Notes: a model not told the origin generated them from the sequence alone. Shown: positions 32,936 through 44,801, counted from the first letter of the stretch. The stretch is DNA of 64,000 nt from Candidatus Thorarchaeota archaeon (GCA_048884965.1 JBHLQH010000001.1:224001-288000); one strand, 5' to 3'. A program made the numbers and translations.

Positions 32936-33418
32936 ATGAATGCAATGAGCAGTCCAATTCCCTCAGCTCCCTCGCTGATGGGAAAACTGAAACCTGAGCA
33001 GGTAGCATATTTGCTTATCATATGCACTTTCTTCCTACCTTTCCTGATCGGTTTTGGCTATGGCAAGGTGTTTTTCATATTTCCATTATTTGAGTTGTCT
33101 GGATTTAGCGTAACCGAGTTCCCCCTCGAATTTGCTTTTGTCACTCCAGTTTCAATCTTTGTATGGATGCCTAATCTCTTCTTCAGCTATTCTGTCTACA
33201 TATATTATAGAAGTGAATTCAGCAGAAATATTCTGTTCGTCGTGCTAGTCTTGAGTCTTTTGTATCTATTTTTTCTAGCCTTCCTTTTTGGATTGGGAGT
33301 TGTTGATTTCTATCCATTACCACTTCTACAGATGATAGGAATTCTATTCTATATAAATCCGCAAAAGCATCCCACTTTTGATATCTGGGGAAATCAAGAG
33401 GAAGAGAATAGATGGTAG
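32936..33418 (+). CDS. Small multi-TM hypothetical protein (paralog A)
   Basis: Hydrophobic; PNLFFSY and PLPLLQ motifs shared with 34130 and 34572. Confidence 0.7.
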   Translation: MNAMSSPIPSAPSLMGKLKPEQVAYLLIICTFFLPFLIGFGYGKVFFIFPLFELSGFSVTEFPLEFAFVTPVSIFVWMPNLFFSYSVYIYYRSEFSRNILFVVLVLSLLYLFFLAFLFGLGVVDFYPLPLLQMIGILFYINPQKHPTFDIWGNQEEENRW

Positions 33419-33469: not shown

Positions 33470-33958
33470 CTACTTTCTGAAGTAAATACGTTTCTTACAA
33501 GCAAGAGGCCCGGCATGAAGGATCTCAATACCCACCTTCTCGCCCATCAACACCTCTAGCATACCAGCAAGATAACCATTGGTCAAGTAGCAAATAGGTC
33601 CACACTGGTGCATACCGTTGTTGGTAACTGCAGTACGAACAGGACAGTCACGAACCATGATATTGACTGAAGGTTGATTCAAGTCGTCCTCGTAGAAGTA
33701 GGATTGATCATCACCATTCTTTCGTAATTCAATACTCCAGACACCTTCGTAAGCTTCGTTGACGAGGTCGATTGCTGGAAGGAGTGCGTTGGTCTTATTC
33801 ATGTCTTGAGCTAATCGTCTTCCTTCTTCTACTCCTGTATTGAAGATCAAACCTTTTGATGCTGGTCCGAGAAGATCCTCTATGCCAACATTCAATGCAG
33901 TCAATAAGGATCGATACGTGTCAACACGTTTCAACTCCTTGTCACTTAGGTGTTCCAT
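33470..33958 (-). CDS. Stand-alone V4R-domain protein (paralog 2)
   Basis: G.EEG, DCP, C..T.GY..G, C-terminal C; closely similar to 37610..38101. Confidence 0.8.
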   Translation of the reverse strand: MEHLSDKELKRVDTYRSLLTALNVGIEDLLGPASKGLIFNTGVEEGRRLAQDMNKTNALLPAIDLVNEAYEGVWSIELRKNGDDQSYFYEDDLNQPSVNIMVRDCPVRTAVTNNGMHQCGPICYLTNGYLAGMLEVLMGEKVGIEILHAGPLACKKRIYFRK

Positions 33959-34129
33959 TGTATTTCGTAACCATAATCGTAGGATTATAACACAATCGGA
34001 AATATAACCAATCTTCTAATCAAAGCATATGAACAGTTATTTGTTGATATCTCTGTCAATGTGTTTCCTTTAGTTCAATCAATATTCTCAGAAGAAAAGA
34101 CATTTCTTATTGTTCTTCTACGGATTTGA

Positions 34130-34594
34130 TTGGTAGGACTGATGGTCAGTGGAATTTGGAATATCGGCATTGTAATGACATTATCATTCGTGTTTCTACC
34201 TTTTATGATATTGACACCTTGGGCGAATGTAGAGGATATCGCAATATTGGGTCATCCCCATGTAGTATTCATCTTCTGGTCGATTGGGTCCTTTGGTCCT
34301 GAAAGTATCCTGATGATCGAGCTCTTTGCGTATTATGAGGTACTCGCTTATCTTGTTCTGAACCTGCCAAACATCTTGTTCGTCTACAAGCTTATACAGT
34401 ATACGGAGCAAGTTGCTTCAAAGAAGGAAGTATTGATAGCAGCATTGATAGGTCCAATCGCTTTTCTAATGGTTGGATTTCCCTCAACGATCTTCTACTA
34501 TCTATCTGGTTATCTTGTTCTGAATTTGCCTTTACCATTACTACAGATAGTTGGATTATCCTATCTAAGATATGGAGTTGAGGGATCTGAATGA
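34130..34594 (+). CDS. Small multi-TM hypothetical protein (paralog B)
   Basis: PNILFVY, LPLPLLQIVG. Confidence 0.7.
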   Translation: MVGLMVSGIWNIGIVMTLSFVFLPFMILTPWANVEDIAILGHPHVVFIFWSIGSFGPESILMIELFAYYEVLAYLVLNLPNILFVYKLIQYTEQVASKKEVLIAALIGPIAFLMVGFPSTIFYYLSGYLVLNLPLPLLQIVGLSYLRYGVEGSE

Positions 34595-35039
34595 AGTACC
34601 GATGAAAGATGTGCTTGACCATTATCAAGAGAAAAGATCAGAGAGAGTTATTTCTGTTCTAGTATTCCTTACTCTATTTGTTCCATATCTGATAGCCATT
34701 GATACGGGTCTCATCGGACTGATATCCGTCGTGTATGGAATTTCATTTACTGCTCAGCAGGGTTTCATTTTCACAATTCCGTTGTTATACCCTGTTAGTA
34801 TAATACTATGGGCTCCCAACGCACTTTTCAGCTATATCGCGTACAAGAGTTATTTGGGGGAATCAAGTGATGGATACTTCATAGCCGCATTAGCGTTCAG
34901 CCTATGGTATGTCAATCTCTGGGGAGGTTTGTTCGGTCTCATATCAATTGATTTCCACTTTCCAGTACCACTTCTTCATATAGCTGGTATCTATTACTAT
35001 CTTGAAGGACGTGATAGAGGTGTCAAACATGTATGGTGA
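34572..35039 (+). CDS. Small multi-TM hypothetical protein (paralog C)
   Basis: PNALFSY, FPVPLLHIAG; exact start uncertain. Confidence 0.7.
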   Translation: MELRDLNEVPMKDVLDHYQEKRSERVISVLVFLTLFVPYLIAIDTGLIGLISVVYGISFTAQQGFIFTIPLLYPVSIILWAPNALFSYIAYKSYLGESSDGYFIAALAFSLWYVNLWGGLFGLISIDFHFPVPLLHIAGIYYYLEGRDRGVKHVW

Positions 35040-35069
35040 TATGGTATGCGTCCTCTTCTCGGTTTGACC

Positions 35070-35351
35070 TCATAGTATCCTCTTGGTCTTCTCCCATATT
35101 TGTGGATCAAGAAGGAACGAGTGTATCTCTTCGATACCCATTACTGTGATAGCTTCAGACCTACATGTATCCTTACATGACAAGCATCCAATGCAATTCT
35201 CAGGATTCGTAATTTCGGGAATCTCATTTGTTCTCTGTGTGATAACTGGAAGTTTTACTAGGCTGTTCTCACCTGAATGCGGACATGAGTCAACACACTC
35301 GCCACATTTCACACAGGCATCTTCGTTTCTTGTAAGAATAATTCTTGACAT
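35070..35351 (-). CDS. 2x[4Fe-4S] ferredoxin
   Basis: CVKCGECVDSCP and CIGCLSCKDTC. Confidence 0.9.
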   Translation of the reverse strand: MSRIILTRNEDACVKCGECVDSCPHSGENSLVKLPVITQRTNEIPEITNPENCIGCLSCKDTCRSEAITVMGIEEIHSFLLDPQIWEKTKRIL

Positions 35352-35352
35352 A

Positions 35353-36699
35353 TCAATCGCCTCCTACTTTGGTTATGTGAGTTGAACAGGATATACAAGG
35401 ATCATAAGCCCGCAGGACCATCTCGCAATTTCTGATTAGTCTGTCTTGATCGAGCCCTTGCTCCTTTCCAAAGACTACACTTTGTTTCAATGCATCATTG
35501 ATAGCTAGTTGATTATTCTGAGTCGCTACTAGCAGATTCGCTTTGGTCACGAACCCATTCGTAATTGCGTAGTGATGAAATAGTGTCCCTCGAGGAGCCT
35601 CAAGAACCCCTGCTGCTTCGCCATCCTTTGCTGTGACGGGGACTGATGTGTCATGCCGTTTCGCATCTGGTGAATCCAGAAGTACTTGGAGTCTTTCACA
35701 AGCATAGATTGCCTCGATTAATCTGACCCAATGTGAGAGGAGACTATGTTCCAGCGGATTACCCCATTTATTCAGTAGTTCTTTCAATTCATTGTCTGCC
35801 ATCTCTGTTCCAAATGAGCCATTCACGTTGGCACGTGCCAAACAATTGACTCGAAGGATTCCCTTCTCTGGACCGAGAGATTTCAGAAACGGTGCCTTCA
35901 TGAATGTTTCAGGGACTGTCATCTCTTTGATATAATCAGTATACACATTGGGATCAAACATTGCAATCTCTTGACCCCCTGAGTCGATGAGACGTACTTG
36001 TCCTCTTGTGAATGAAACCTTTCCATTATCTGAGAGTGCCATGTAGTTTGAAGGGACTGATCCAATGGATGAAATGAAATCACTTTTCTCCTCAAACCAA
36101 TTCTTCAATTGATCAAGGAAGATTTCGACAATGCCCTGAGCTTCAGATAGGAGTGATGAATAATCCAATGAATTTTCCAACAACGGATTGGCACCCATTC
36201 CTCCAAGCCTGACATTGACAGGGTGAACATTTCTGCCACCCATTGTTGCAGTAAGGCTTCGCCCAATTGTGTGAAGACGCATCCCCTTTTCAAAGAGGTC
36301 CGGATACTCAGACTTGATGTCCACAATACTATGAGCGTCATCCTTTGGAACCAGATCTGGCAAGGATAAAACAACGAACGACAATGCATGGGAGTCGATC
36401 AACTGTGATAGCACAAGCATTTCTCTAAGGACCTTTGCTGTCTCAGGAATATCTACATTGAGAGCCTTCTCTATCGCTTGTGATGCACTGACAGCATGTG
36501 ACACTGGGCACACTCCACATACACGACTGGCCAACCAAGGAATCCTTTCTATTGGGGCTCCGACCAAGAATGCCTCAAATCCTCTCAGAACTGGAGTTGT
36601 AAAGTATGCCCGATTGATAGAGCCGTCATCATGGAATTCTAAGTTCAGTCTTCCATGAGACTCAATTCTTGTCACTGGCTCTATCTTGATTTGAGTCAT
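35353..36699 (-). CDS. [NiFe]-hydrogenase large subunit (group 3-like)
   Basis: TRIESHG, L1 RVCGVC, EAPRG, L2 DPCISCSTH. ATG 36699 follows GGAGGT. Confidence 0.92.
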   Translation of the reverse strand: MTQIKIEPVTRIESHGRLNLEFHDDGSINRAYFTTPVLRGFEAFLVGAPIERIPWLASRVCGVCPVSHAVSASQAIEKALNVDIPETAKVLREMLVLSQLIDSHALSFVVLSLPDLVPKDDAHSIVDIKSEYPDLFEKGMRLHTIGRSLTATMGGRNVHPVNVRLGGMGANPLLENSLDYSSLLSEAQGIVEIFLDQLKNWFEEKSDFISSIGSVPSNYMALSDNGKVSFTRGQVRLIDSGGQEIAMFDPNVYTDYIKEMTVPETFMKAPFLKSLGPEKGILRVNCLARANVNGSFGTEMADNELKELLNKWGNPLEHSLLSHWVRLIEAIYACERLQVLLDSPDAKRHDTSVPVTAKDGEAAGVLEAPRGTLFHHYAITNGFVTKANLLVATQNNQLAINDALKQSVVFGKEQGLDQDRLIRNCEMVLRAYDPCISCSTHITKVGGD

Positions 36700-37613
36700 T
36701 TCATTACCTCCTTCTTCATGATTGGTGCTTGAAGCTCCACAATCTTCGAGTATGGTTTTCGTTTCATGGCTTGACTCGCGAATGTGAATGGGAAGAATCT
36801 CCATGGGATGGCTTGGATCTCCTTTAGCACATCTGCTTCAGATCTTCCTGAGAAATGTGATACTCTGCTCACAAAATCTCGCAGAACGTTATGAGTGGGT
36901 TGAATGAGAACTCTATCTGTTGGTCCTCTGCATCCACTACAGGCAATATTCATAGATGGGCATTGAGCACTACATCCGCCCCGTGTGACTGAGCCAAGAC
37001 AAATGTATCCCTGTGATAGCAAGCATATATCCTCATCAGGTATTGTGAGATTCTCGAAGCTCTCAATGTGTCTATGCTCTATTCGTCTGCCGCAGCTCGC
37101 ACACACTGGAAGGCGATGCTCTGTCGTCATCTCGATCTCCTTTCCCGCAAGCACCAAAGGAAGCGCATGTTGCAGAACTGACTCCGACGGTGGGCATCCT
37201 GGGATGTAATAGTCTATAGTGACGAATCTATCCAAGCTCTCCAGTCTAGGAATCACTGTGGGAGTATCTGAGTAGGTGCCAGAATCTCCAGTGACCACCT
37301 TCAACAGGTCATCAGTTCTTTGAAGATTCCCTAGAGCTTGAATGCCACCATAACTAGCGCAGGACCCTAGTGCTACTAGGATTTTAGACTTCTCTCTTGC
37401 GTCCCGGAGCTTTGCAAGATCTTCATCTGTTCGTACCGCTCCTTCGACCAAGCAACAATCGACATTTGGAAGCTCTCTCGCATCCATGATTGTAGTGGCA
37501 TATTTAATATCTGACAGCATTCTACTCAAGATCTCCTTCTGATCTAGAATAGACACCTGACAGCCTGAGCATGCTGAGAGACTTACAATTGCAATATCCA
37601 ATCTCTCACTCAG
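36696..37613 (-). CDS. [NiFe]-hydrogenase small subunit (MvhG/HydD-like)
   Basis: CSGC, EG, GSCA..GG, PGCPP, CASC, CLL..G.IC.G, C...CP....C.GC.GP. Probable CTG start. Confidence 0.9.
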   Translation of the reverse strand: MSERLDIAIVSLSACSGCQVSILDQKEILSRMLSDIKYATTIMDARELPNVDCCLVEGAVRTDEDLAKLRDAREKSKILVALGSCASYGGIQALGNLQRTDDLLKVVTGDSGTYSDTPTVIPRLESLDRFVTIDYYIPGCPPSESVLQHALPLVLAGKEIEMTTEHRLPVCASCGRRIEHRHIESFENLTIPDEDICLLSQGYICLGSVTRGGCSAQCPSMNIACSGCRGPTDRVLIQPTHNVLRDFVSRVSHFSGRSEADVLKEIQAIPWRFFPFTFASQAMKRKPYSKIVELQAPIMKKEVMK

Positions 37614-38101
37614 CTCCTGAAGTAGATTTTCTTCAAGCATGAATTTGGTCCAGTATGTTCGATCTCCATTCCGACTTTCTTATCCATGATTTCTGATAGC
37701 ATCCCGCAAAGGTTGCCATTTGTGAGATAACAGATTGGACCCCCTTGTTGCATTCCATGTGAGAGTACCGCTTGTCGAATTGGGCATTCATGGATTACTA
37801 TCTTCGCAGATGTATTTCCTTTCTCATCGACATATTCATACGACTCTTGCTCCTTTTCCTTGAAAAGCTGCACATTCCATACTCCGTCGAACGCCTCATT
37901 TACACTAGAAATTGCTTCCTCGATAGAATCAGATTTGGGGATATTCCTGCCAATCGTTCTTCCTTCTTCAACTCCAGTGGTGAAGATTAATCCTTTTGAT
38001 CCTCGTCCAAGTAGGTCTTCTATGCCATTATTGAGGGTTGTTAACAGTGAGAGTGCGCTGCTTAGCAACTTTGTCTGTTGGTCTTTTGTGGGGACGAACA
38101 T
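37610..38101 (-). CDS. V4R-domain protein (paralog 1), first gene of the hydrogenase operon
   Basis: ECP, ICY.T.G...G, SC; its stop overlaps the start of the small subunit. Confidence 0.8.
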   Translation of the reverse strand: MFVPTKDQQTKLLSSALSLLTTLNNGIEDLLGRGSKGLIFTTGVEEGRTIGRNIPKSDSIEEAISSVNEAFDGVWNVQLFKEKEQESYEYVDEKGNTSAKIVIHECPIRQAVLSHGMQQGGPICYLTNGNLCGMLSEIMDKKVGMEIEHTGPNSCLKKIYFRS

Positions 38102-38245
38102 GGCTTGTTGAGATTAAAGAGGAGATATAATGTTTCTGCGCAGCAATATCGGACACATTTATGGACCTACAAGCAGCAAAACACATATGCAGGGAGCATC
38201 AGACAATGCGAGATAGACTATTGCACTTTCGGAGGCGCCTAGATC

Positions 38246-39961
38246 ATGGATATTTCGTTCAATATAGGTGGCGAAGCTGGTCAAGGAATCGATACCATTG
38301 GAGATCTCTTGACGCAGATCTTTGTCAAACAAGGATTCTACACATTCACCTCTAAAGATTTCATGTCACGAATTAGAGGTGGATACAATTTCAATGTGAT
38401 TCGGGTATCAGACAAGCCTGTGTTTGCATCCCTTGATACATACAATGTGATCGTGGCTCTAACAGAGGATGCCATCAGAGAACCTCGTGATAATCTAAGT
38501 GAAGGTGGAGTGATTATCTTTGATGAATCCATCGAGTTGAAAGAACTCGAAGCGTGTCATTTCTCGGCACCTCTGGAAAAGACGGCAAAAGAGATAGGTG
38601 GCGATGTGAGGATGATGAATGCTGCAGCGCTAGGTGCAGTTCTTTCTGTTCTCAAGTTCCCATTCAAGCTTGCTGAAGATATGCTAACGGGTATTTTCAG
38701 TAGGAAGGGAGAGAAGGTCGTCGAGTCCAACATTGCAGTCGCCAAGGCATTATATGATCTAACGAACGAGAGATTCTCTGGACCATGTAGTGAGAATCTG
38801 AGTGCCATTGAAAGTGGACCATGTAAAGACACTCTAATGTTGACTGGGAATCAAGGTGTTGCATTTGGAGCTATGGCTGCAAATGTAAAGTGGGTATCGT
38901 CATACCCAATGAGTCCTTCTACGTCAGTTTTCATAGATATCATTTCAAATGCAAATAAATTGAAAATTGGAACCATTCAATCAGAGGATGAGATATCTGC
39001 CATCCTTATGGCCATCGGAGCTTCCTATGGAGGTGCTCGCGCAATGACAACAACCTCTGGTGGAGGATTCGCTTTGATGGTTGAGGCGCTGGGATTCGCA
39101 GCAATGTCTGAAACTCCTGTAATCATATACAATGCGCAAAGACCTGGTCCAAGCACAGGACTTCCTACACGAACAGAACAAGCAGATCTTCTTTTCTCGG
39201 TCTTCGCGAGTCAAGGAGAGTTTCCAAGAATTATACTCGCACCAAAAGACCCCGTTGATGGATTTGATGTCACGGTGCGTGCGTTCAATCTTTCTGAGAA
39301 ATTTCAGGTTCCTGTCATGATACTCGGGGATCAATACTTTGCTGACTCTGTGATGAATCTGCCACGGATTGATGTTTCCTCAGTAAAGATCGATCGAGGT
39401 AGTCTGGCGGATGAGAATGATACTGCATACAAGCGCTATTTGCTCACAAATGATGGTGTTTCTCCCAGAGCATTTCCTGGAACTCCCGGGAAAGTGGTAG
39501 TTGCTTCTGGGAATGTGCATCTTGAGAATGGACATATAACAGAAAATGCTCAGGTTCGCGACGCCATGGTTCACAAATTCATGAACAAGATTCCTTTCAT
39601 CATGAAGGATATGCAGCATCCAACCTTATACGGAGCGAAGGACGCTGACATCACTTTGCTTACCTGGGGCTCATCCTGGGGTGCAGCTTTTGAAGCAATG
39701 CAAATTCTTTCTGAGCAAGGAACATCAATCAATCTATTGCATTTCACAGATATCTATCCAATGCGTGATGAGATCCTCAAGGAGGTTTTTGCAAGGGCGA
39801 AGAAAGTCGTTGCAGTAGAGCAAAATGCACTATCACAATTTGCGAAGCTTGTAAGGATGGAAGTTGGGCTAAACGTAACGCATCATGTGAACCGCTATGA
39901 TGGGCGACCGATGACCGCAAGATGGATTATTGAGAAGCTCAAGGAGGTTGGTGCTCTATGA
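38246..39961 (+). CDS. korA: 2-oxoacid:ferredoxin oxidoreductase alpha subunit
   Basis: GGEAGQG, YPMSP, EDE, TSGGG, QRPGPSTG.PT. Confidence 0.92.
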   Translation: MDISFNIGGEAGQGIDTIGDLLTQIFVKQGFYTFTSKDFMSRIRGGYNFNVIRVSDKPVFASLDTYNVIVALTEDAIREPRDNLSEGGVIIFDESIELKELEACHFSAPLEKTAKEIGGDVRMMNAAALGAVLSVLKFPFKLAEDMLTGIFSRKGEKVVESNIAVAKALYDLTNERFSGPCSENLSAIESGPCKDTLMLTGNQGVAFGAMAANVKWVSSYPMSPSTSVFIDIISNANKLKIGTIQSEDEISAILMAIGASYGGARAMTTTSGGGFALMVEALGFAAMSETPVIIYNAQRPGPSTGLPTRTEQADLLFSVFASQGEFPRIILAPKDPVDGFDVTVRAFNLSEKFQVPVMILGDQYFADSVMNLPRIDVSSVKIDRGSLADENDTAYKRYLLTNDGVSPRAFPGTPGKVVVASGNVHLENGHITENAQVRDAMVHKFMNKIPFIMKDMQHPTLYGAKDADITLLTWGSSWGAAFEAMQILSEQGTSINLLHFTDIYPMRDEILKEVFARAKKVVAVEQNALSQFAKLVRMEVGLNVTHHVNRYDGRPMTARWIIEKLKEVGAL

Positions 39962-40824
39962 TTACAGCCGATAAATTAGAAGGAGTTCAGAAAGTCACTT
40001 GGTGTACAGGATGCGGTAACTTTGGAATCTTAGCCTCGTTGAAGAAGGCAGTAATGGAGCTAGATGTTCCACATGAGGACCTAGTCTTGATATCTGGCAT
40101 AGGTTGCTCAAGCAAGATTCCTCATTACATCAATCTGAGCGCAATGCATACCTTACATGGAAGGCCTATCCCAGTCGCTACTGGTGTTCATCTTGTAAAT
40201 CAGGATTTAACTGTCTTTGTACATACTGGTGATGGTGATTGTCTAGGAGAGGGTCTCGGGCATTTTGTTCATGCTGCGAGGCGAAATGTGAACATGGCTG
40301 TATTCATCCATAACAACGGAGTGAATGGTCTTACAAAGGGACAGTTCTCCCCCTCAGCTAGAAGAGGGTATGTATCCAACACATCTCCACCACCACCCGG
40401 TGCACCGATGGATCCAGTGAATCCAATTGCTCTCGCTTTGTCTTCAGGTGCCAGCTTTGCAGCTAGAGGTTTTTCTGGTGACCAGAAAAATCTTGTAGAA
40501 ATAATGATTCGCGCTATCAAACACCGAGGATTTGCGGTGGTGGACATCCTCCAACCTTGTGTCACGTGGAACCGATCCCTAACATGGGCATTCTACAACA
40601 AACATACCTACAATCTACAAGAGAATGGACACGATGAAACTGATCGCTTCAAGGCAATAGAAAAGTCAATGGAATGGGGTGAGAGAATCCCCACAGGAAT
40701 CTTCTTTGATGTTGAGTGCACTGATCTTGCACAAAGCCTTTCACTACCAAGTGATGGTAGACTAAAGGAGCATGTCAATGATTTGTCCATCGTTCAACAG
40801 CTGATTGACGAGAAGATGATCTAG
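39958..40824 (+). CDS. korB: 2-oxoacid:ferredoxin oxidoreductase beta subunit
   Basis: WCTGCG, SGIGC, HGR, GDGD, GLTKGQ, QPC. Confidence 0.92.
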   Translation: MITADKLEGVQKVTWCTGCGNFGILASLKKAVMELDVPHEDLVLISGIGCSSKIPHYINLSAMHTLHGRPIPVATGVHLVNQDLTVFVHTGDGDCLGEGLGHFVHAARRNVNMAVFIHNNGVNGLTKGQFSPSARRGYVSNTSPPPPGAPMDPVNPIALALSSGASFAARGFSGDQKNLVEIMIRAIKHRGFAVVDILQPCVTWNRSLTWAFYNKHTYNLQENGHDETDRFKAIEKSMEWGERIPTGIFFDVECTDLAQSLSLPSDGRLKEHVNDLSIVQQLIDEKMI

Positions 40825-40826
40825 TT

Positions 40827-40856
40827 AAAGGAAGAGGGCAACAAGTCCTCTTCTTT
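40827..40856 (+). terminator. Stem-loop after korB
   Basis: GAAGAGG/CCTCTTC stem followed by TTT. Confidence 0.45.
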
Positions 40857-40918
40857 ATGCACACGAAGTAAAACAATATGTAGAACTTGTGCCTATGAGA
40901 AAAGTTGAGGCGAATTCT

Positions 40919-42304
40919 ATGGTGAAGATGAGGAAAGAAAGCGATGTGCTTGGTACTGTTGAGGTTCCCGATGATGCATACTTTGGGATAAATACTCAGC
41001 GTGCCATCCGCAATTTCTCGATTAGTGGACGACGAATGCCAATAGCATTCATAGTCGCCTTAGCCCAGGTGAAGAAGGCGTGTTTACTCTCAAACATTGA
41101 ACATGGAGAGATAGAGAACGAGATAGGTGAAGCACTCCTTACATCGGTTGACGAAATCCTTCACCATGAGAAGTTCTTCGATCAGTTTCCTGTTGATGTG
41201 TTCCAGACTGGTTCTGGAACGCAGACGAATACCAACATGAATGAGGTTCTAGCAAATAGAGCAAACGAATTGCTCGGACATTCAAAGGGAATGAAATCTC
41301 CTGTACATCCTAATGATCATGTGAACTTGGGACAGTCAAGCAATGATGTCATCCCTACGGCGATGCATGTGGCTGCCCTTAGTGGAATCACAAAAGACTT
41401 ACTCCCTGCTGTGGAGCGACTAATGCAAATTTTGGATGTCAAGATATCAGAGTTCAAAGGGATTGTTAAGATTGGGCGAACGCATCTTCAGGATGCTGTT
41501 CCTATACCCTTATCGATGGAGTTTGATGTATATAGATCACAGGTCATATCGAATTTTGATGATCTTCAACATGTACGTGAGGATTTGGTACGCCTCCCAA
41601 TAGGGGGCACTGTACTCGGTACTGGCTTGAATGCACCTGAAGGCTTCTCAGTTCGTGTAGTAAAACATCTTTCAAAAATAACAGGACTCCCTCTTGAGAT
41701 CAATCCTGTGCTTGCTGAGGGGATCGCTTCACATCGTGCACTTGTGAAACTAAGTAGTGTGTTGAAATTGTTGGCACTTAGTTGTCTTAAGATGGCGAAT
41801 GACATCCGCTGGATGGCATCTGGTCCTCGAGCAGGTTTGGGTGAATTACTATTGCCTGAAAATGAGCCTGGTTCCTCTATTATGCCTGGTAAGATCAACC
41901 CAACTCAATCGGAATCTCTTATTCAAGTTGCCTTACAGGTGATTGGATACGATGCTGCTATCACACTTGGAGAAGGATTTGGTAGCATCCTAGATCTAAA
42001 TGTGGCCAAGCCCTTGATTATAACTAATATACTTGATTCAATCAATATCCTCTCAAATGGAATCATATCTTTCGTCAACAAGTGCCTCATTGATCTCACA
42101 CCCAATCAAGAGATCATTCGATCCCATCTGGATAGGAGTCTTATGATAGTAACTCGCCTCTCGCCAGTAATAGGGTATGATAAGGCTGCAGAGGTAGCTC
42201 GGCATGCATATGAGAGTGGGAAGACCGTGAAGGAAGCGGTTATTGATATGGGATTGAGTATTGAGAATCTGGATGAGATATTAGACCCCGCAAGAATGAT
42301 TTGA
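40919..42304 (+). CDS. fumC: Class II fumarate hydratase
   Basis: QTGSGT..N.N, HPNDHVN, GRTHLQDA, GSSIMPGKINP. Confidence 0.92.
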   Translation: MVKMRKESDVLGTVEVPDDAYFGINTQRAIRNFSISGRRMPIAFIVALAQVKKACLLSNIEHGEIENEIGEALLTSVDEILHHEKFFDQFPVDVFQTGSGTQTNTNMNEVLANRANELLGHSKGMKSPVHPNDHVNLGQSSNDVIPTAMHVAALSGITKDLLPAVERLMQILDVKISEFKGIVKIGRTHLQDAVPIPLSMEFDVYRSQVISNFDDLQHVREDLVRLPIGGTVLGTGLNAPEGFSVRVVKHLSKITGLPLEINPVLAEGIASHRALVKLSSVLKLLALSCLKMANDIRWMASGPRAGLGELLLPENEPGSSIMPGKINPTQSESLIQVALQVIGYDAAITLGEGFGSILDLNVAKPLIITNILDSINILSNGIISFVNKCLIDLTPNQEIIRSHLDRSLMIVTRLSPVIGYDKAAEVARHAYESGKTVKEAVIDMGLSIENLDEILDPARMI

Positions 42305-42393
42305 GTTCAATGTGATTCCGCTTGAGAATAATTCATAACTGATGTGCCCTCCCTTTTTGCTGCTTAGTTCGCTTTCAGAGGAGGATAACAAGG

Positions 42394-44073
42394 GTGATCC
42401 ATTCACATGATGTACTAGTCATAGGAGCTGGTCTAGCAGGACTTCGAGTCGCGATTGAACTGGCTGATACTCATGATGTGGCGATTCTAACCAAAGTTCA
42501 TTCACTTCGCTCACATTCGGTTGCTGCACAAGGTGGGATAAATGCGGCTCTAGGGGAGGATGACTCTTGGGAGGTCCATGCCTTCGATACTGTGAAAGGT
42601 TCAGACTATCTTGCAGACCAAGACGCAGTTGAAATCCTTACAAGGGAAGCCCCTCAAGCTGTAATTGAAAACGAACGATGGGGCACCGCATTTTCGCGTA
42701 CTGAGGATGGTAAAATTGCTCAACGCCCTTTTGGAGGTGCAGGCTTTCCAAGAACTTGCTACGCTTCAGATCGCACTGGCCACAATCTACTACATACGAC
42801 CTTTGAACAGGCAATACGTCTGGGCATAAAGTTCTATGACGAGTTCTTTGTGACTTCTCTGGTTCGAAGCGATACGAAGATATCCGGAGCAACGGCTCTT
42901 GAGATTTCTACTGGTGAGGTACATGGATTCAATGCAAAGGCTGTGGTTATAGCCACTGGAGGATTTGGACGTGTTTACGCTCGCTCCACCAATGCAATCA
43001 TCAATACAGGAGATGGATGCAGCCTTGCTTTGAGAATCAGCGTACCCTTGAAGGATATGGAATTCGTCCAATTTCATCCCACAACACTGTTCGGTTCTAG
43101 CATACTAATCACGGAAGGTGCCCGAGGTGAGGGTGGTCATTTGATCAACTCCAAGGGAGAGCGATTCATGGCCAAGTACGCTCCAGAGAAGATGGAGCTT
43201 GCACCTCGCGACATTGTAGCAAGAGCTATACGAACCGAGGTCTTGGAAGGTCGGGGATATGAGAATGAGTATGTTCACCTAGACCTAACCCATCTGGGCA
43301 AAGAGAAGATTATGGAGCGTCTCCCTGGCATCCGGGAGATCTGTATTTACTTCGCTGGCATCGATCCAATTCAGGAGCCTATCCCTGTTCAACCAGGACA
43401 GCATTATTCAATGGGCGGTGTTGATTGTAACAGATCTGGTGAGACCTCACTTCGGGGTTTGTATGCTGTAGGTGAGGCATCGTGTATGAGTGTTCACGGC
43501 GCAAACAGGTTGGGCGGTAATTCACTGTTGGAAACCTTGGTCTTTGGACGCGTTGTTGGAGCTGAAGTAAGGGAGTTTCTAAAGCAAGCTGAGGGTCCTA
43601 GTGGCGTATCGATGAGGGATCAGGTTCATTCTGTTCGAGAAAAGCTCCAGACTATCCTCTTTAGAGAAACGGGAGAATCTGTTGTTGGTCTAAGAGAATC
43701 CTTGACTGAGATTATGGACGCAAAGGTAGGAGTATTCCGTCGTCCTGAAGATATCAAAGAAGCTCTTGATGTGATTCATGATGTCAGAGAAAGATTCGCT
43801 GCAATAGCCCTTGGTGGATCTGATAAACGTTTCAACTATTCCCTAATCCGAGCACTTGAGCTTGAGAATATGATTGATTTAGCTGAAGCTATAGCTCTCG
43901 GAGCTTTGAAACGTGAAGAGAGTAGAGGGGCACATTGGCGATTGGATTTTCCGCATCGTGATGATGGTCGTTTCCTGAAACATACCCTTGCAATGCTTTC
44001 ACCTGAAGGAATGCAGATAAGCTATAAGGATGTGAATCTTGGAAGATTTGAAGTAAAGGAGAGGACATACTAA
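42394..44073 (+). CDS. sdhA: Succinate dehydrogenase/fumarate reductase flavoprotein
   Basis: RSHSVAAQGG (FAD-linked His), QFHPT, EGARGEGG, HGANRLGGNSL. Confidence 0.93.
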   Translation: MIHSHDVLVIGAGLAGLRVAIELADTHDVAILTKVHSLRSHSVAAQGGINAALGEDDSWEVHAFDTVKGSDYLADQDAVEILTREAPQAVIENERWGTAFSRTEDGKIAQRPFGGAGFPRTCYASDRTGHNLLHTTFEQAIRLGIKFYDEFFVTSLVRSDTKISGATALEISTGEVHGFNAKAVVIATGGFGRVYARSTNAIINTGDGCSLALRISVPLKDMEFVQFHPTTLFGSSILITEGARGEGGHLINSKGERFMAKYAPEKMELAPRDIVARAIRTEVLEGRGYENEYVHLDLTHLGKEKIMERLPGIREICIYFAGIDPIQEPIPVQPGQHYSMGGVDCNRSGETSLRGLYAVGEASCMSVHGANRLGGNSLLETLVFGRVVGAEVREFLKQAEGPSGVSMRDQVHSVREKLQTILFRETGESVVGLRESLTEIMDAKVGVFRRPEDIKEALDVIHDVRERFAAIALGGSDKRFNYSLIRALELENMIDLAEAIALGALKREESRGAHWRLDFPHRDDGRFLKHTLAMLSPEGMQISYKDVNLGRFEVKERTY

Positions 44074-44801
44074 TGATTTTCAGAATAGCACGAAGTCGGG
44101 ATGGTGGAGCCATCACTCATTATGATCTCTACAAGATTCAGGAAAGGAAGGGTATGACTATCTTGGATGCACTCTTCCAAATTCAGGATCGTATGGACTC
44201 TTCTCTTGCGTTCCGCTATTCCTGTAGGGGTGCCGTCTGTGGAAGTTGTGCTATGTTGATCAACAAAGAACCCCGCTTGGCTTGTCGAACTCAGGTTTCA
44301 TCAATTCATACCGAGCCGCTAAACCTCAGACCTTTTCCGTCAATAAGTGAAACTCCTCAGGGATGGGATCATGAGAAGGAGATACTTATTGAGCCACTTC
44401 CCAATTTTCCCATACTCAAGGATCTCGTCGTTGATATGACCAAATTCTATGACACACTAAAGGAGCTCAGATTATGGGCCGATCCTGTGTCTGGAGAGAC
44501 TTCTCGTTTTCAGAGTCCTGAAGATCGTGAGGTCATAAGACGATATGTGAATTGTATCTTATGCGCAATTTGCTATGGCTCTTGCCCGGTAAACTTTGAG
44601 AATGAAGATTATGTAGGGCCTGCTGCTCTAGCGAAGGCGTATAGATTCAATCAGGATTCGAGGTCTCCTGATGCTGAGAGGTATTTGAATGACGCTAAAG
44701 GTCCTCATGGTGCTCCTCTGTGTGACCTCGTCATGAATTGCGTCAAAGCATGCCCTAAAGGTGTCGCACCTGGAGGAGCAATTCGAAAGATGAAAGAATG
44801 A
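44073..44801 (+). CDS. sdhB: Succinate dehydrogenase/fumarate reductase Fe-S subunit
   Basis: SCRGAVCGSC, CILCAICYGSCP, C.....C...CP. Confidence 0.93.
   Translation: MIFRIARSRDGGAITHYDLYKIQERKGMTILDALFQIQDRMDSSLAFRYSCRGAVCGSCAMLINKEPRLACRTQVSSIHTEPLNLRPFPSISETPQGWDHEKEILIEPLPNFPILKDLVVDMTKFYDTLKELRLWADPVSGETSRFQSPEDREVIRRYVNCILCAICYGSCPVNFENEDYVGPAALAKAYRFNQDSRSPDAERYLNDAKGPHGAPLCDLVMNCVKACPKGVAPGGAIRKMKE

Follow-up and report, generated by a model that had tools for sequence, protein, structure and literature searches.

Gene content of the locus

We analysed a 64,000-nt stretch of DNA (the window; C1:224001-288000) from a 4.09-Mb, 99-contig metagenome-assembled genome of Thorarchaeota, which carries a [NiFe]-hydrogenase gene cassette headed by a gene for a V4R protein. 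The cassette consists of four minus-strand genes, about 3 kb in all, that are tightly packed in the order V4R1, small subunit, large subunit and ferredoxin with gaps or overlaps of no more than 15 nt. A second V4R gene (V4R2, 33470..33958, minus strand) stands alone outside the cassette as a paralog of V4R1. A preliminary description of this DNA had reported the four genes as abutting or overlapping open reading frames (ORFs) together with the second V4R gene, and ORF analysis with Pfam and NCBIfam searches located all five as described.

The first cassette gene, V4R1 (37610..38101, minus strand), encodes a 163-residue protein of the V4R/Bet3 fold. Inspection of the sequence ∼24-29 nt before its ATG revealed a TTATAT box (38125..38130, minus strand), which sits in the 144-bp divergent region between V4R1 and korA and which we infer to be a candidate archaeal promoter giving a leaderless or short-leader operon mRNA. 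The MvhG/VhuG-like small subunit, identified by Pfam and NCBIfam, occupies 36696..37601 (minus strand) in an ORF that is open to 37640. Because 11 of 15 full-length orthologues are 299-304 residues long, its start is most likely the TTG at 37601, and this start leaves 8 nt between V4R1 and the small subunit, which would otherwise overlap by 31 nt. The MvhA-like [NiFe] large subunit (35353..36699, minus strand) is unsplit, all-Cys and 448 residues long. Its ORF is open to 36804, but the orthologues and the junction sequence rule out a start at that position and place it at 36699 (MTQIK), in an ATGA overlap with the small-subunit stop. The ferredoxin gene (35070..35351, minus strand) starts 1 nt past the large-subunit stop and encodes 93 residues with a predicted two [4Fe-4S] clusters.

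Both hydrogenase subunits are homologous over their full length to those of the group 3c enzymes MvhAGD(B)/VhuAGDU (5ODC). The small subunit scores 93.5 bits with Pfam Oxidored_q6 and 192 bits with NCBIfam VhuG (below the equivalog cut-off of 450), and 12 Cys are invariant in its alignment, enough for three [4Fe-4S] clusters as in Mvh. The large subunit scores 94.4 bits with Pfam NiFeSe_Hases (PF00374; threshold 25.8) and 287 bits with NCBIfam VhuA (below the equivalog cut-off of 800). Its top PDB match is MvhA of 5ODC (289 bits, full length), and the group 3d Hox enzyme 5XF9 matches with 220 bits. Two oddities pointed out in the preliminary description, a RIESH motif in place of the usual RIEGH and a tail of only seven residues, are real, as the protein reads RIESH (RIEGH in Mvh), RVCGVC and DPCISCSTH followed by 7 residues. 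Residues R11, E13, H15, C61, C64, H68, R370, D433, P434, C435, C438 and H441 are invariant in the family alignment, a set that covers the four metal-ligand Cys, the L1 Glu, the canopy Arg and the terminal His. The alignment shows that the large subunit keeps every residue required for catalysis, and the proton-gate residues are preserved as well. We considered whether the short C-terminal tail by itself marks a sensor and rejected this, as the two group 3b large subunits of the same genome end 5 residues after the His.

The ferredoxin scores above threshold with Fer4, Fer4_7 and related Pfam families. It has two complete four-Cys CxxCxxCxxxC motifs in which all 8 Cys are invariant, enough for two clusters, with a linker of ∼29 residues between the motifs and a C-terminal extension of ∼25 residues. 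Maturation genes are found elsewhere in the genome, HypD on contig C16 and one HycI-type protease on C7. The genome also has 10 copies of the MvhD domain (PF02662), two of which head the hydrogenases on C13 and C58. None of these copies is on contig C1; all 10 are on other contigs.

The two V4R proteins fall short of the Pfam V4R (PF02830) threshold of 31 bits, scoring 16.5 and 17.7 (E = 0.009 and 0.004), and a whole-genome search for the V4R family gave 17.9 and 18.9 bits for the two copies. When a V4R-family hidden Markov model (HMM) was run against PDB sequences, only noise was returned (E = 0.18 and 2) and 7YH3 was unmatched. An AlphaFold2 model of V4R1 based on 28 homologues had a predicted local distance difference test score of 91.7, and Foldseek matched this model to the V4R sensor domains of PoxR, MopR and DmpR and to TRAPPC3/Bet3 (E = 4e-6). 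VIA Z-scores against V4R/Bet3 structures were 9-12 over 126-144 residues, with values of 9.9-11.4 for MJ1460 and MopR/PoxR. Other structural matches of the model were TPC6, BcsD, the V4R protein MJ1460 and a crystallised Thorarchaeota TRAPPC3. The predicted structure confirms V4R1 as a V4R/Bet3-fold protein. Its sequence is only 10-18% identical to members of this superfold (PoxR/MopR/DmpR, MJ1460, TRAPPC3/C6 and the Thorarchaeota TRAPPC3 structures 7YH3 and 7YH2), none of which is known as a hydrogenase partner.

Alignments of the whole V4R1 family leave only G47, Cys106, Cys124 and Cys155 invariant. In PoxR and in Thorarchaeota TRAPPC3 a Zn held by Cys in the corresponding position fastens a helix onto the sheet and gives the ligand cavity its shape (PMC10933270), and V4R1 resembles the superfold both in overall fold and in Cys that would link helix and sheet. 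By analogy with PoxR/MopR and Thorarchaeota TRAPPC3, the V4R1 Cys probably hold a structural Zn. Cys132 was tried as a fourth metal ligand and rejected, as it is Ala in the V4R2 of the genus and is not kept in distant members. The TRAPPC3-like proteins of Thorarchaeota have been crystallised and have no known function (PMC10933270). The V4R1-like family is small, its profile recovering only 79 representative clusters among 1.84 billion, with named members in Hydrothermarchaeota, Omnitrophota, Methanomicrobiales and Methanobacterium.

Conservation and phylogenetic position of the cassette

The order V4R, small subunit, large subunit, ferredoxin recurs in seven independent Asgard loci with unrelated flanks (the window, L009, G016/L059, G019/L060, L056, L057 and L058). 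At every cassette locus the V4R gene directly precedes the small subunit, and none of the seven Asgard cassettes contains MvhD. By tblastn the large subunits of the other Asgard cassettes are 54-70% identical to that of the window. Across 87 species genomes of the order, only two others have V4R1-type genes (identity of 73% or more), and the same two are the only others with orthologous large subunits (59-70%); every remaining large subunit in the 87 genomes is at most 36% identical to the window's. The ferredoxin gene is kept after the large subunit in L009, L056-58 and in the more distant loci L068 and L071, so the ferredoxin partner proposed in the preliminary description is a conserved part of the cassette.

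At 23 of 27 other Thorarchaeota loci the genes within the available DNA read MvhD, small subunit, large subunit, and the remaining four end before that position; V4R1 therefore occupies the slot of MvhD. The cassette order mirrors mvhD-G-A-B, in which mvhB is the last gene, with an iron-sulfur protein closing both. The two arrangements differ in that the cassette has neither MvhD nor an adjacent heterodisulfide reductase (Hdr) and carries a V4R-fold protein in the MvhD position, and in that its 93-residue two-cluster ferredoxin stands where Mvh has a polyferredoxin.

To place the enzyme we used a large-subunit phylogeny, in which the window sequence falls into a clade of ∼22 sequences (at least 56% identical). 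This clade has full support (100 in both the Shimodaira-Hasegawa-like approximate likelihood-ratio test and the ultrafast bootstrap) and a stem of 0.8 substitutions per site. All members for which the N-terminus is available read RIESH, and the tail after the last His is 7-12 residues long, whereas it is 23-27 residues in the nearest relatives outside the clade (group 3d Hox and bacterial V4R-linked large subunits). The nearest matches outside are at most 40% identical and belong either to group 3d HoxEFUYH enzymes or to a bacterial clade of 466-467-residue proteins. Although group 3d Hox enzymes supply many of the next-best database matches, the cassette has no HoxEFU genes, and its small subunit is ∼300 residues long with three clusters' worth of Cys compared with 180 residues in Hox. 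Among the V4R-linked, MvhD-linked and Hox clades the backbone of the tree collapses into a polytomy, while the window clade remains separate with 100% support, apart from the MvhD-linked enzymes of its own genome. The label 'group 3e' has already been given to other lineages, one in Anaerolineae and one in Desulfobacteria.

The preliminary description would have been contradicted had the enzyme been an ordinary group 3b or 3c member with partner subunits encoded elsewhere and a V4R linkage that is not conserved. Because the linkage is conserved, in the seven Asgard loci and in distant bacterial and euryarchaeal cassettes, and because the enzyme forms a clade of its own, this does not appear to be the case for V4R1.

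V4R-linked hydrogenase genes are not limited to this Asgard clade. A Coatesbacteria locus (L068) encodes a 158-residue V4R1 homologue (hhalign probability 99.7%, E = 2e-26) followed by small subunit, large subunit and ferredoxin, and a Joint Genome Institute (JGI) contig of the bacterial clade carries a V4R-linked cassette flanked upstream by a Roadblock gene and downstream by genes for an Arf-like GTPase and a histidine kinase. A Hydrothermarchaeota locus (L071) has V4R, small and large subunits with ferredoxin, DUF2226 and Roadblock; a Methanobacterium locus (L072) has V4R, small and large subunits with a Roadblock-domain protein; and a second Asgard family, f28 (G384, G386), has V4R, small and large subunits at 37-39% identity. 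Because distant V4R homologues directly precede Mvh-like subunits in Coatesbacteria, Hydrothermarchaeota, Methanobacterium and the second Asgard family, the window cassette is, judging by gene order, an Asgard branch of a wider kind of V4R-linked hydrogenase. A single origin of all V4R-linked large subunits is not rejected (approximately unbiased test, p = 0.44). The bacterial and euryarchaeal cassettes (L068, L071, L072) share with the window a V4R gene immediately ahead of the small-subunit gene, a ferredoxin gene within the unit and the three invariant V4R Cys, whereas their large subunits are 34-39% and their V4R proteins 22-34% identical to those of the window. Among V4R-linked enzymes, RIESH and the short tail are peculiar to the Asgard clade.

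At L071 (5422-5958 and 9051-9903) two tandem V4R paralogs precede the small subunit, compared with the single V4R of the Asgard cassettes, and DUF2226 and Roadblock/LC7 genes follow the ferredoxin. Immediately beyond this cassette, in convergent orientation, is a canonical MvhD-small-large set. In another Asgard family, a distant V4R1-like gene that is 25% identical to V4R1 (G092:C314:1243-1662, L082) is present on a 4.6-kb contig that contains no hydrogenase.

The two MvhD-linked hydrogenases of the window's own genome are split (C13:30911-32404, minus strand, and C58:11371-12850, plus strand). Their large subunit of ∼437 residues ends before the C-terminal motif, and a 54-codon ORF follows that reads RCYDC-TGA-LSCAAH, in which the TGA replaces the first Cys of DPCxxCxxH, where VhuU has selenocysteine. 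Most MvhD-linked Thorarchaeota large-subunit matches stop at about residues 404-420 of the 448-residue query, and the split may be widespread in the order.

Proposed function and alternatives

With only modest confidence, we lean towards the cassette encoding one soluble, Hdr-independent, ferredoxin-wired Mvh-like [NiFe]-hydrogenase in which V4R1 is an accessory subunit. Electrons would leave the NiFe site by way of the small-subunit clusters, reach the ferredoxin subunit and continue to the ferredoxin pool of the cell or another acceptor. V4R1, whose gene stands where mvhDGA(B) has mvhD, would be an accessory subunit present in stoichiometric amount, a role we propose because the gene order is conserved and tightly packed, and it would contribute a cavity for a small ligand or a surface for docking, not a redox cluster. 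In a fermentative or acetogenic host the enzyme would vent as H2 the reduced ferredoxin produced by 2-oxoacid:ferredoxin oxidoreductases, or would run in reverse. The divergent korAB neighbour weakly suggests ferredoxin-driven H2 evolution in this lineage.

Mvh-type hydrogenases are understood as MvhD-docked heterodisulfide reductase modules, so that a lineage that swaps MvhD for a V4R protein and its own ferredoxin would represent a differently wired soluble [NiFe] enzyme. It could serve as a direct ferredoxin:H2 valve, which matters for the question of how Asgard archaea living in syntrophy get rid of reducing equivalents. The hydrogenase would also be the first concrete genomic partner of a V4R/Bet3-like protein in Thorarchaeota; our literature searches found no description of a link between V4R and hydrogenase. 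With four genes in ∼3 kb, the cassette is tractable for heterologous expression.

Several observations weigh against an Hdr-independent hydrogenase with V4R1 as its subunit. The cassette is rare, occurring in 3 of the 87 species genomes of the order and in 5 of 400 Asgard genomes when family f28 is counted, and is therefore not core metabolism. The korAB neighbourhood is found only in this genome and its close relatives, with other flanks around the other cassettes. Distant relatives adjoin Roadblock, small-GTPase or kinase genes, a hint of signalling and not of bulk metabolism. The three invariant Cys of V4R1 could ligate an iron-sulfur cluster instead of Zn. Lastly, that V4R1 physically binds the enzyme we infer solely from gene order.

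The signalling genes near distant cassettes bear on the alternative that the enzyme is a sensory or regulatory hydrogenase, one that turns over slowly and in which V4R1 relays H2 or redox state to a Roadblock/longin protein or small GTPase encoded elsewhere. Such neighbours take the form of Roadblock with an Arf-like GTPase and histidine kinase in one distant cassette, DUF2226 with Roadblock in another and a Roadblock-domain protein in a third, and the Mvh cluster of Geobacter includes a methyl-accepting chemotaxis protein (MCP), named MvhV (PMC7894505). The match of the V4R fold to the PoxR/MopR/DmpR sensor domains and to Bet3 fits a sensor as well, as do the short C-terminal tail and the altered RIEGH motif. 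A functional analogy, and only that, can be drawn to the group 2b enzymes (HoxBC-HoxJ, HupUV), in which a cytosolic small-large pair is likewise tied to a sensor-type partner; however, the cassette is closest to groups 3c and 3d, has no adjacent kinase and keeps both its 7-residue tail and its ferredoxin. No signalling gene (Roadblock, small GTPase, MCP or kinase) lies next to the Asgard cassettes of the window, L009 and L056-L058, in contrast to V4R-linked cassettes elsewhere. Given further that the catalytic and proton-gate residues are all preserved, that a C-terminal tail remains and that a dedicated ferredoxin is retained, we regard a sensory role as doubtful.

Alternatively, V4R1 could be an enzyme-specific assembly or maturation chaperone, or a stability regulator, that is made together with the subunits and is absent from the mature enzyme. 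Many hydrogenase operons encode dedicated chaperones, this operon has no other accessory gene, and a ligand-carrying role has been suggested for BchJ and other V4R-type proteins. Yet in every lineage V4R1 heads the operon in close coupling with the small-subunit gene, it takes the place of a structural subunit, MvhD, and V4R2-type paralogs remain in genomes that do not have the enzyme. A chaperone is, in our estimation, unlikely.

A more speculative reading, to which we give quite a small chance, is that V4R1 acts as a Bet3-like transducer that reads the redox state of the iron-sulfur clusters for longin/Roadblock and small-GTPase partners, or as a subunit holding a hydrophobic redox-active ligand that is reduced with H2. 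If this were true, the V4R/Bet3 fold would have partnered redox enzymes already in the archaeal lineage that gave rise to TRAPP, and V4R2 would be a freed copy carrying the fold to other partners.

Very improbable, finally, is that the window enzyme is a selenium-independent back-up of the genome's selenocysteine-type Vhu-like hydrogenases that serves the same Hdr complexes, like Vhc for Vhu in Methanococcus. In its favour, the C13 and C58 enzymes resemble VhuA/VhuU in being split, with a TGA where the C-terminal motif has its first Cys, and the window encodes the genome's one Mvh-like large subunit that is both unsplit and all-Cys. Against it, the window enzyme shares just 31-34% identity with those two enzymes, has no MvhD for docking on HdrA, occurs in 3 of 87 genomes of an order in which the Mvh type is nearly universal, and is also kept in distant lineages.

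The stand-alone paralog V4R2 and neighbouring genes

V4R1 and V4R2 share 51-54% identity, and the genome has no further copy. V4R2 is separated from the cassette by two plus-strand genes for small proteins with four transmembrane segments (4-TM), mem1 (34130-34594) and mem2 (34572-35039, overlapping mem1), which lie between the ferredoxin gene and V4R2. It has a promoter box of its own, TTATAA (33985-33990, minus strand), ∼27-32 nt before its ATG.

In the V4R tree the V4R2-type genes form a clade (support 99/92) nested among the Asgard cassette V4Rs, and V4R2 is therefore a derived duplicate. V4R2-type genes are found without any hydrogenase in at least seven other genomes (L010, L011, L015, L017, L019-21), and the genomes with V4R2 only have no orthologous hydrogenase. 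In L010 and L011 the gene lies in the same korAB-fumarase / thermosome-TrxR-prenyltransferase synteny as in the window. Conversely, no second V4R was found within 6-8 kb of the cassette-only loci L009 and L056-L058. We rejected V4R2 as an obligate partner of the enzyme, as it stands alone without hydrogenase elsewhere, as cassette-only loci have no second V4R and as its clade is derived; the same three observations do not support the V4R1/V4R2 (hetero)dimer put forward in the preliminary description. By its phylogeny and distribution we read V4R2 as a paralog that has escaped the cassette and taken on a role of its own, and the duplication that led from V4R1 to V4R2 shows such a protein leaving its enzyme.

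The 4-TM proteins belong to a family without a Pfam match, whose genes lie next to V4R2-type genes, on the other strand, at four independent loci, namely the window, L011 (6708-9211, three copies), L063 (5201-5830) and L066 (5248-6887). The window has three copies, the third paralog being mem0 (32936-33418, plus strand). An HMM of the family never matches the neighbours of cassette-only loci, and the 4-TM proteins are a possible partner of stand-alone V4R2.

On the other side of the cassette, a plus-strand block comprising korA (a gamma-alpha fusion) and korB, fumarase C, and sdhA/frdA-sdhB/frdB (38246-44801) runs divergently from the hydrogenase genes. This korAB-fumarase-sdh/frd block also adjoins the V4R2-type genes in L010 and L011.

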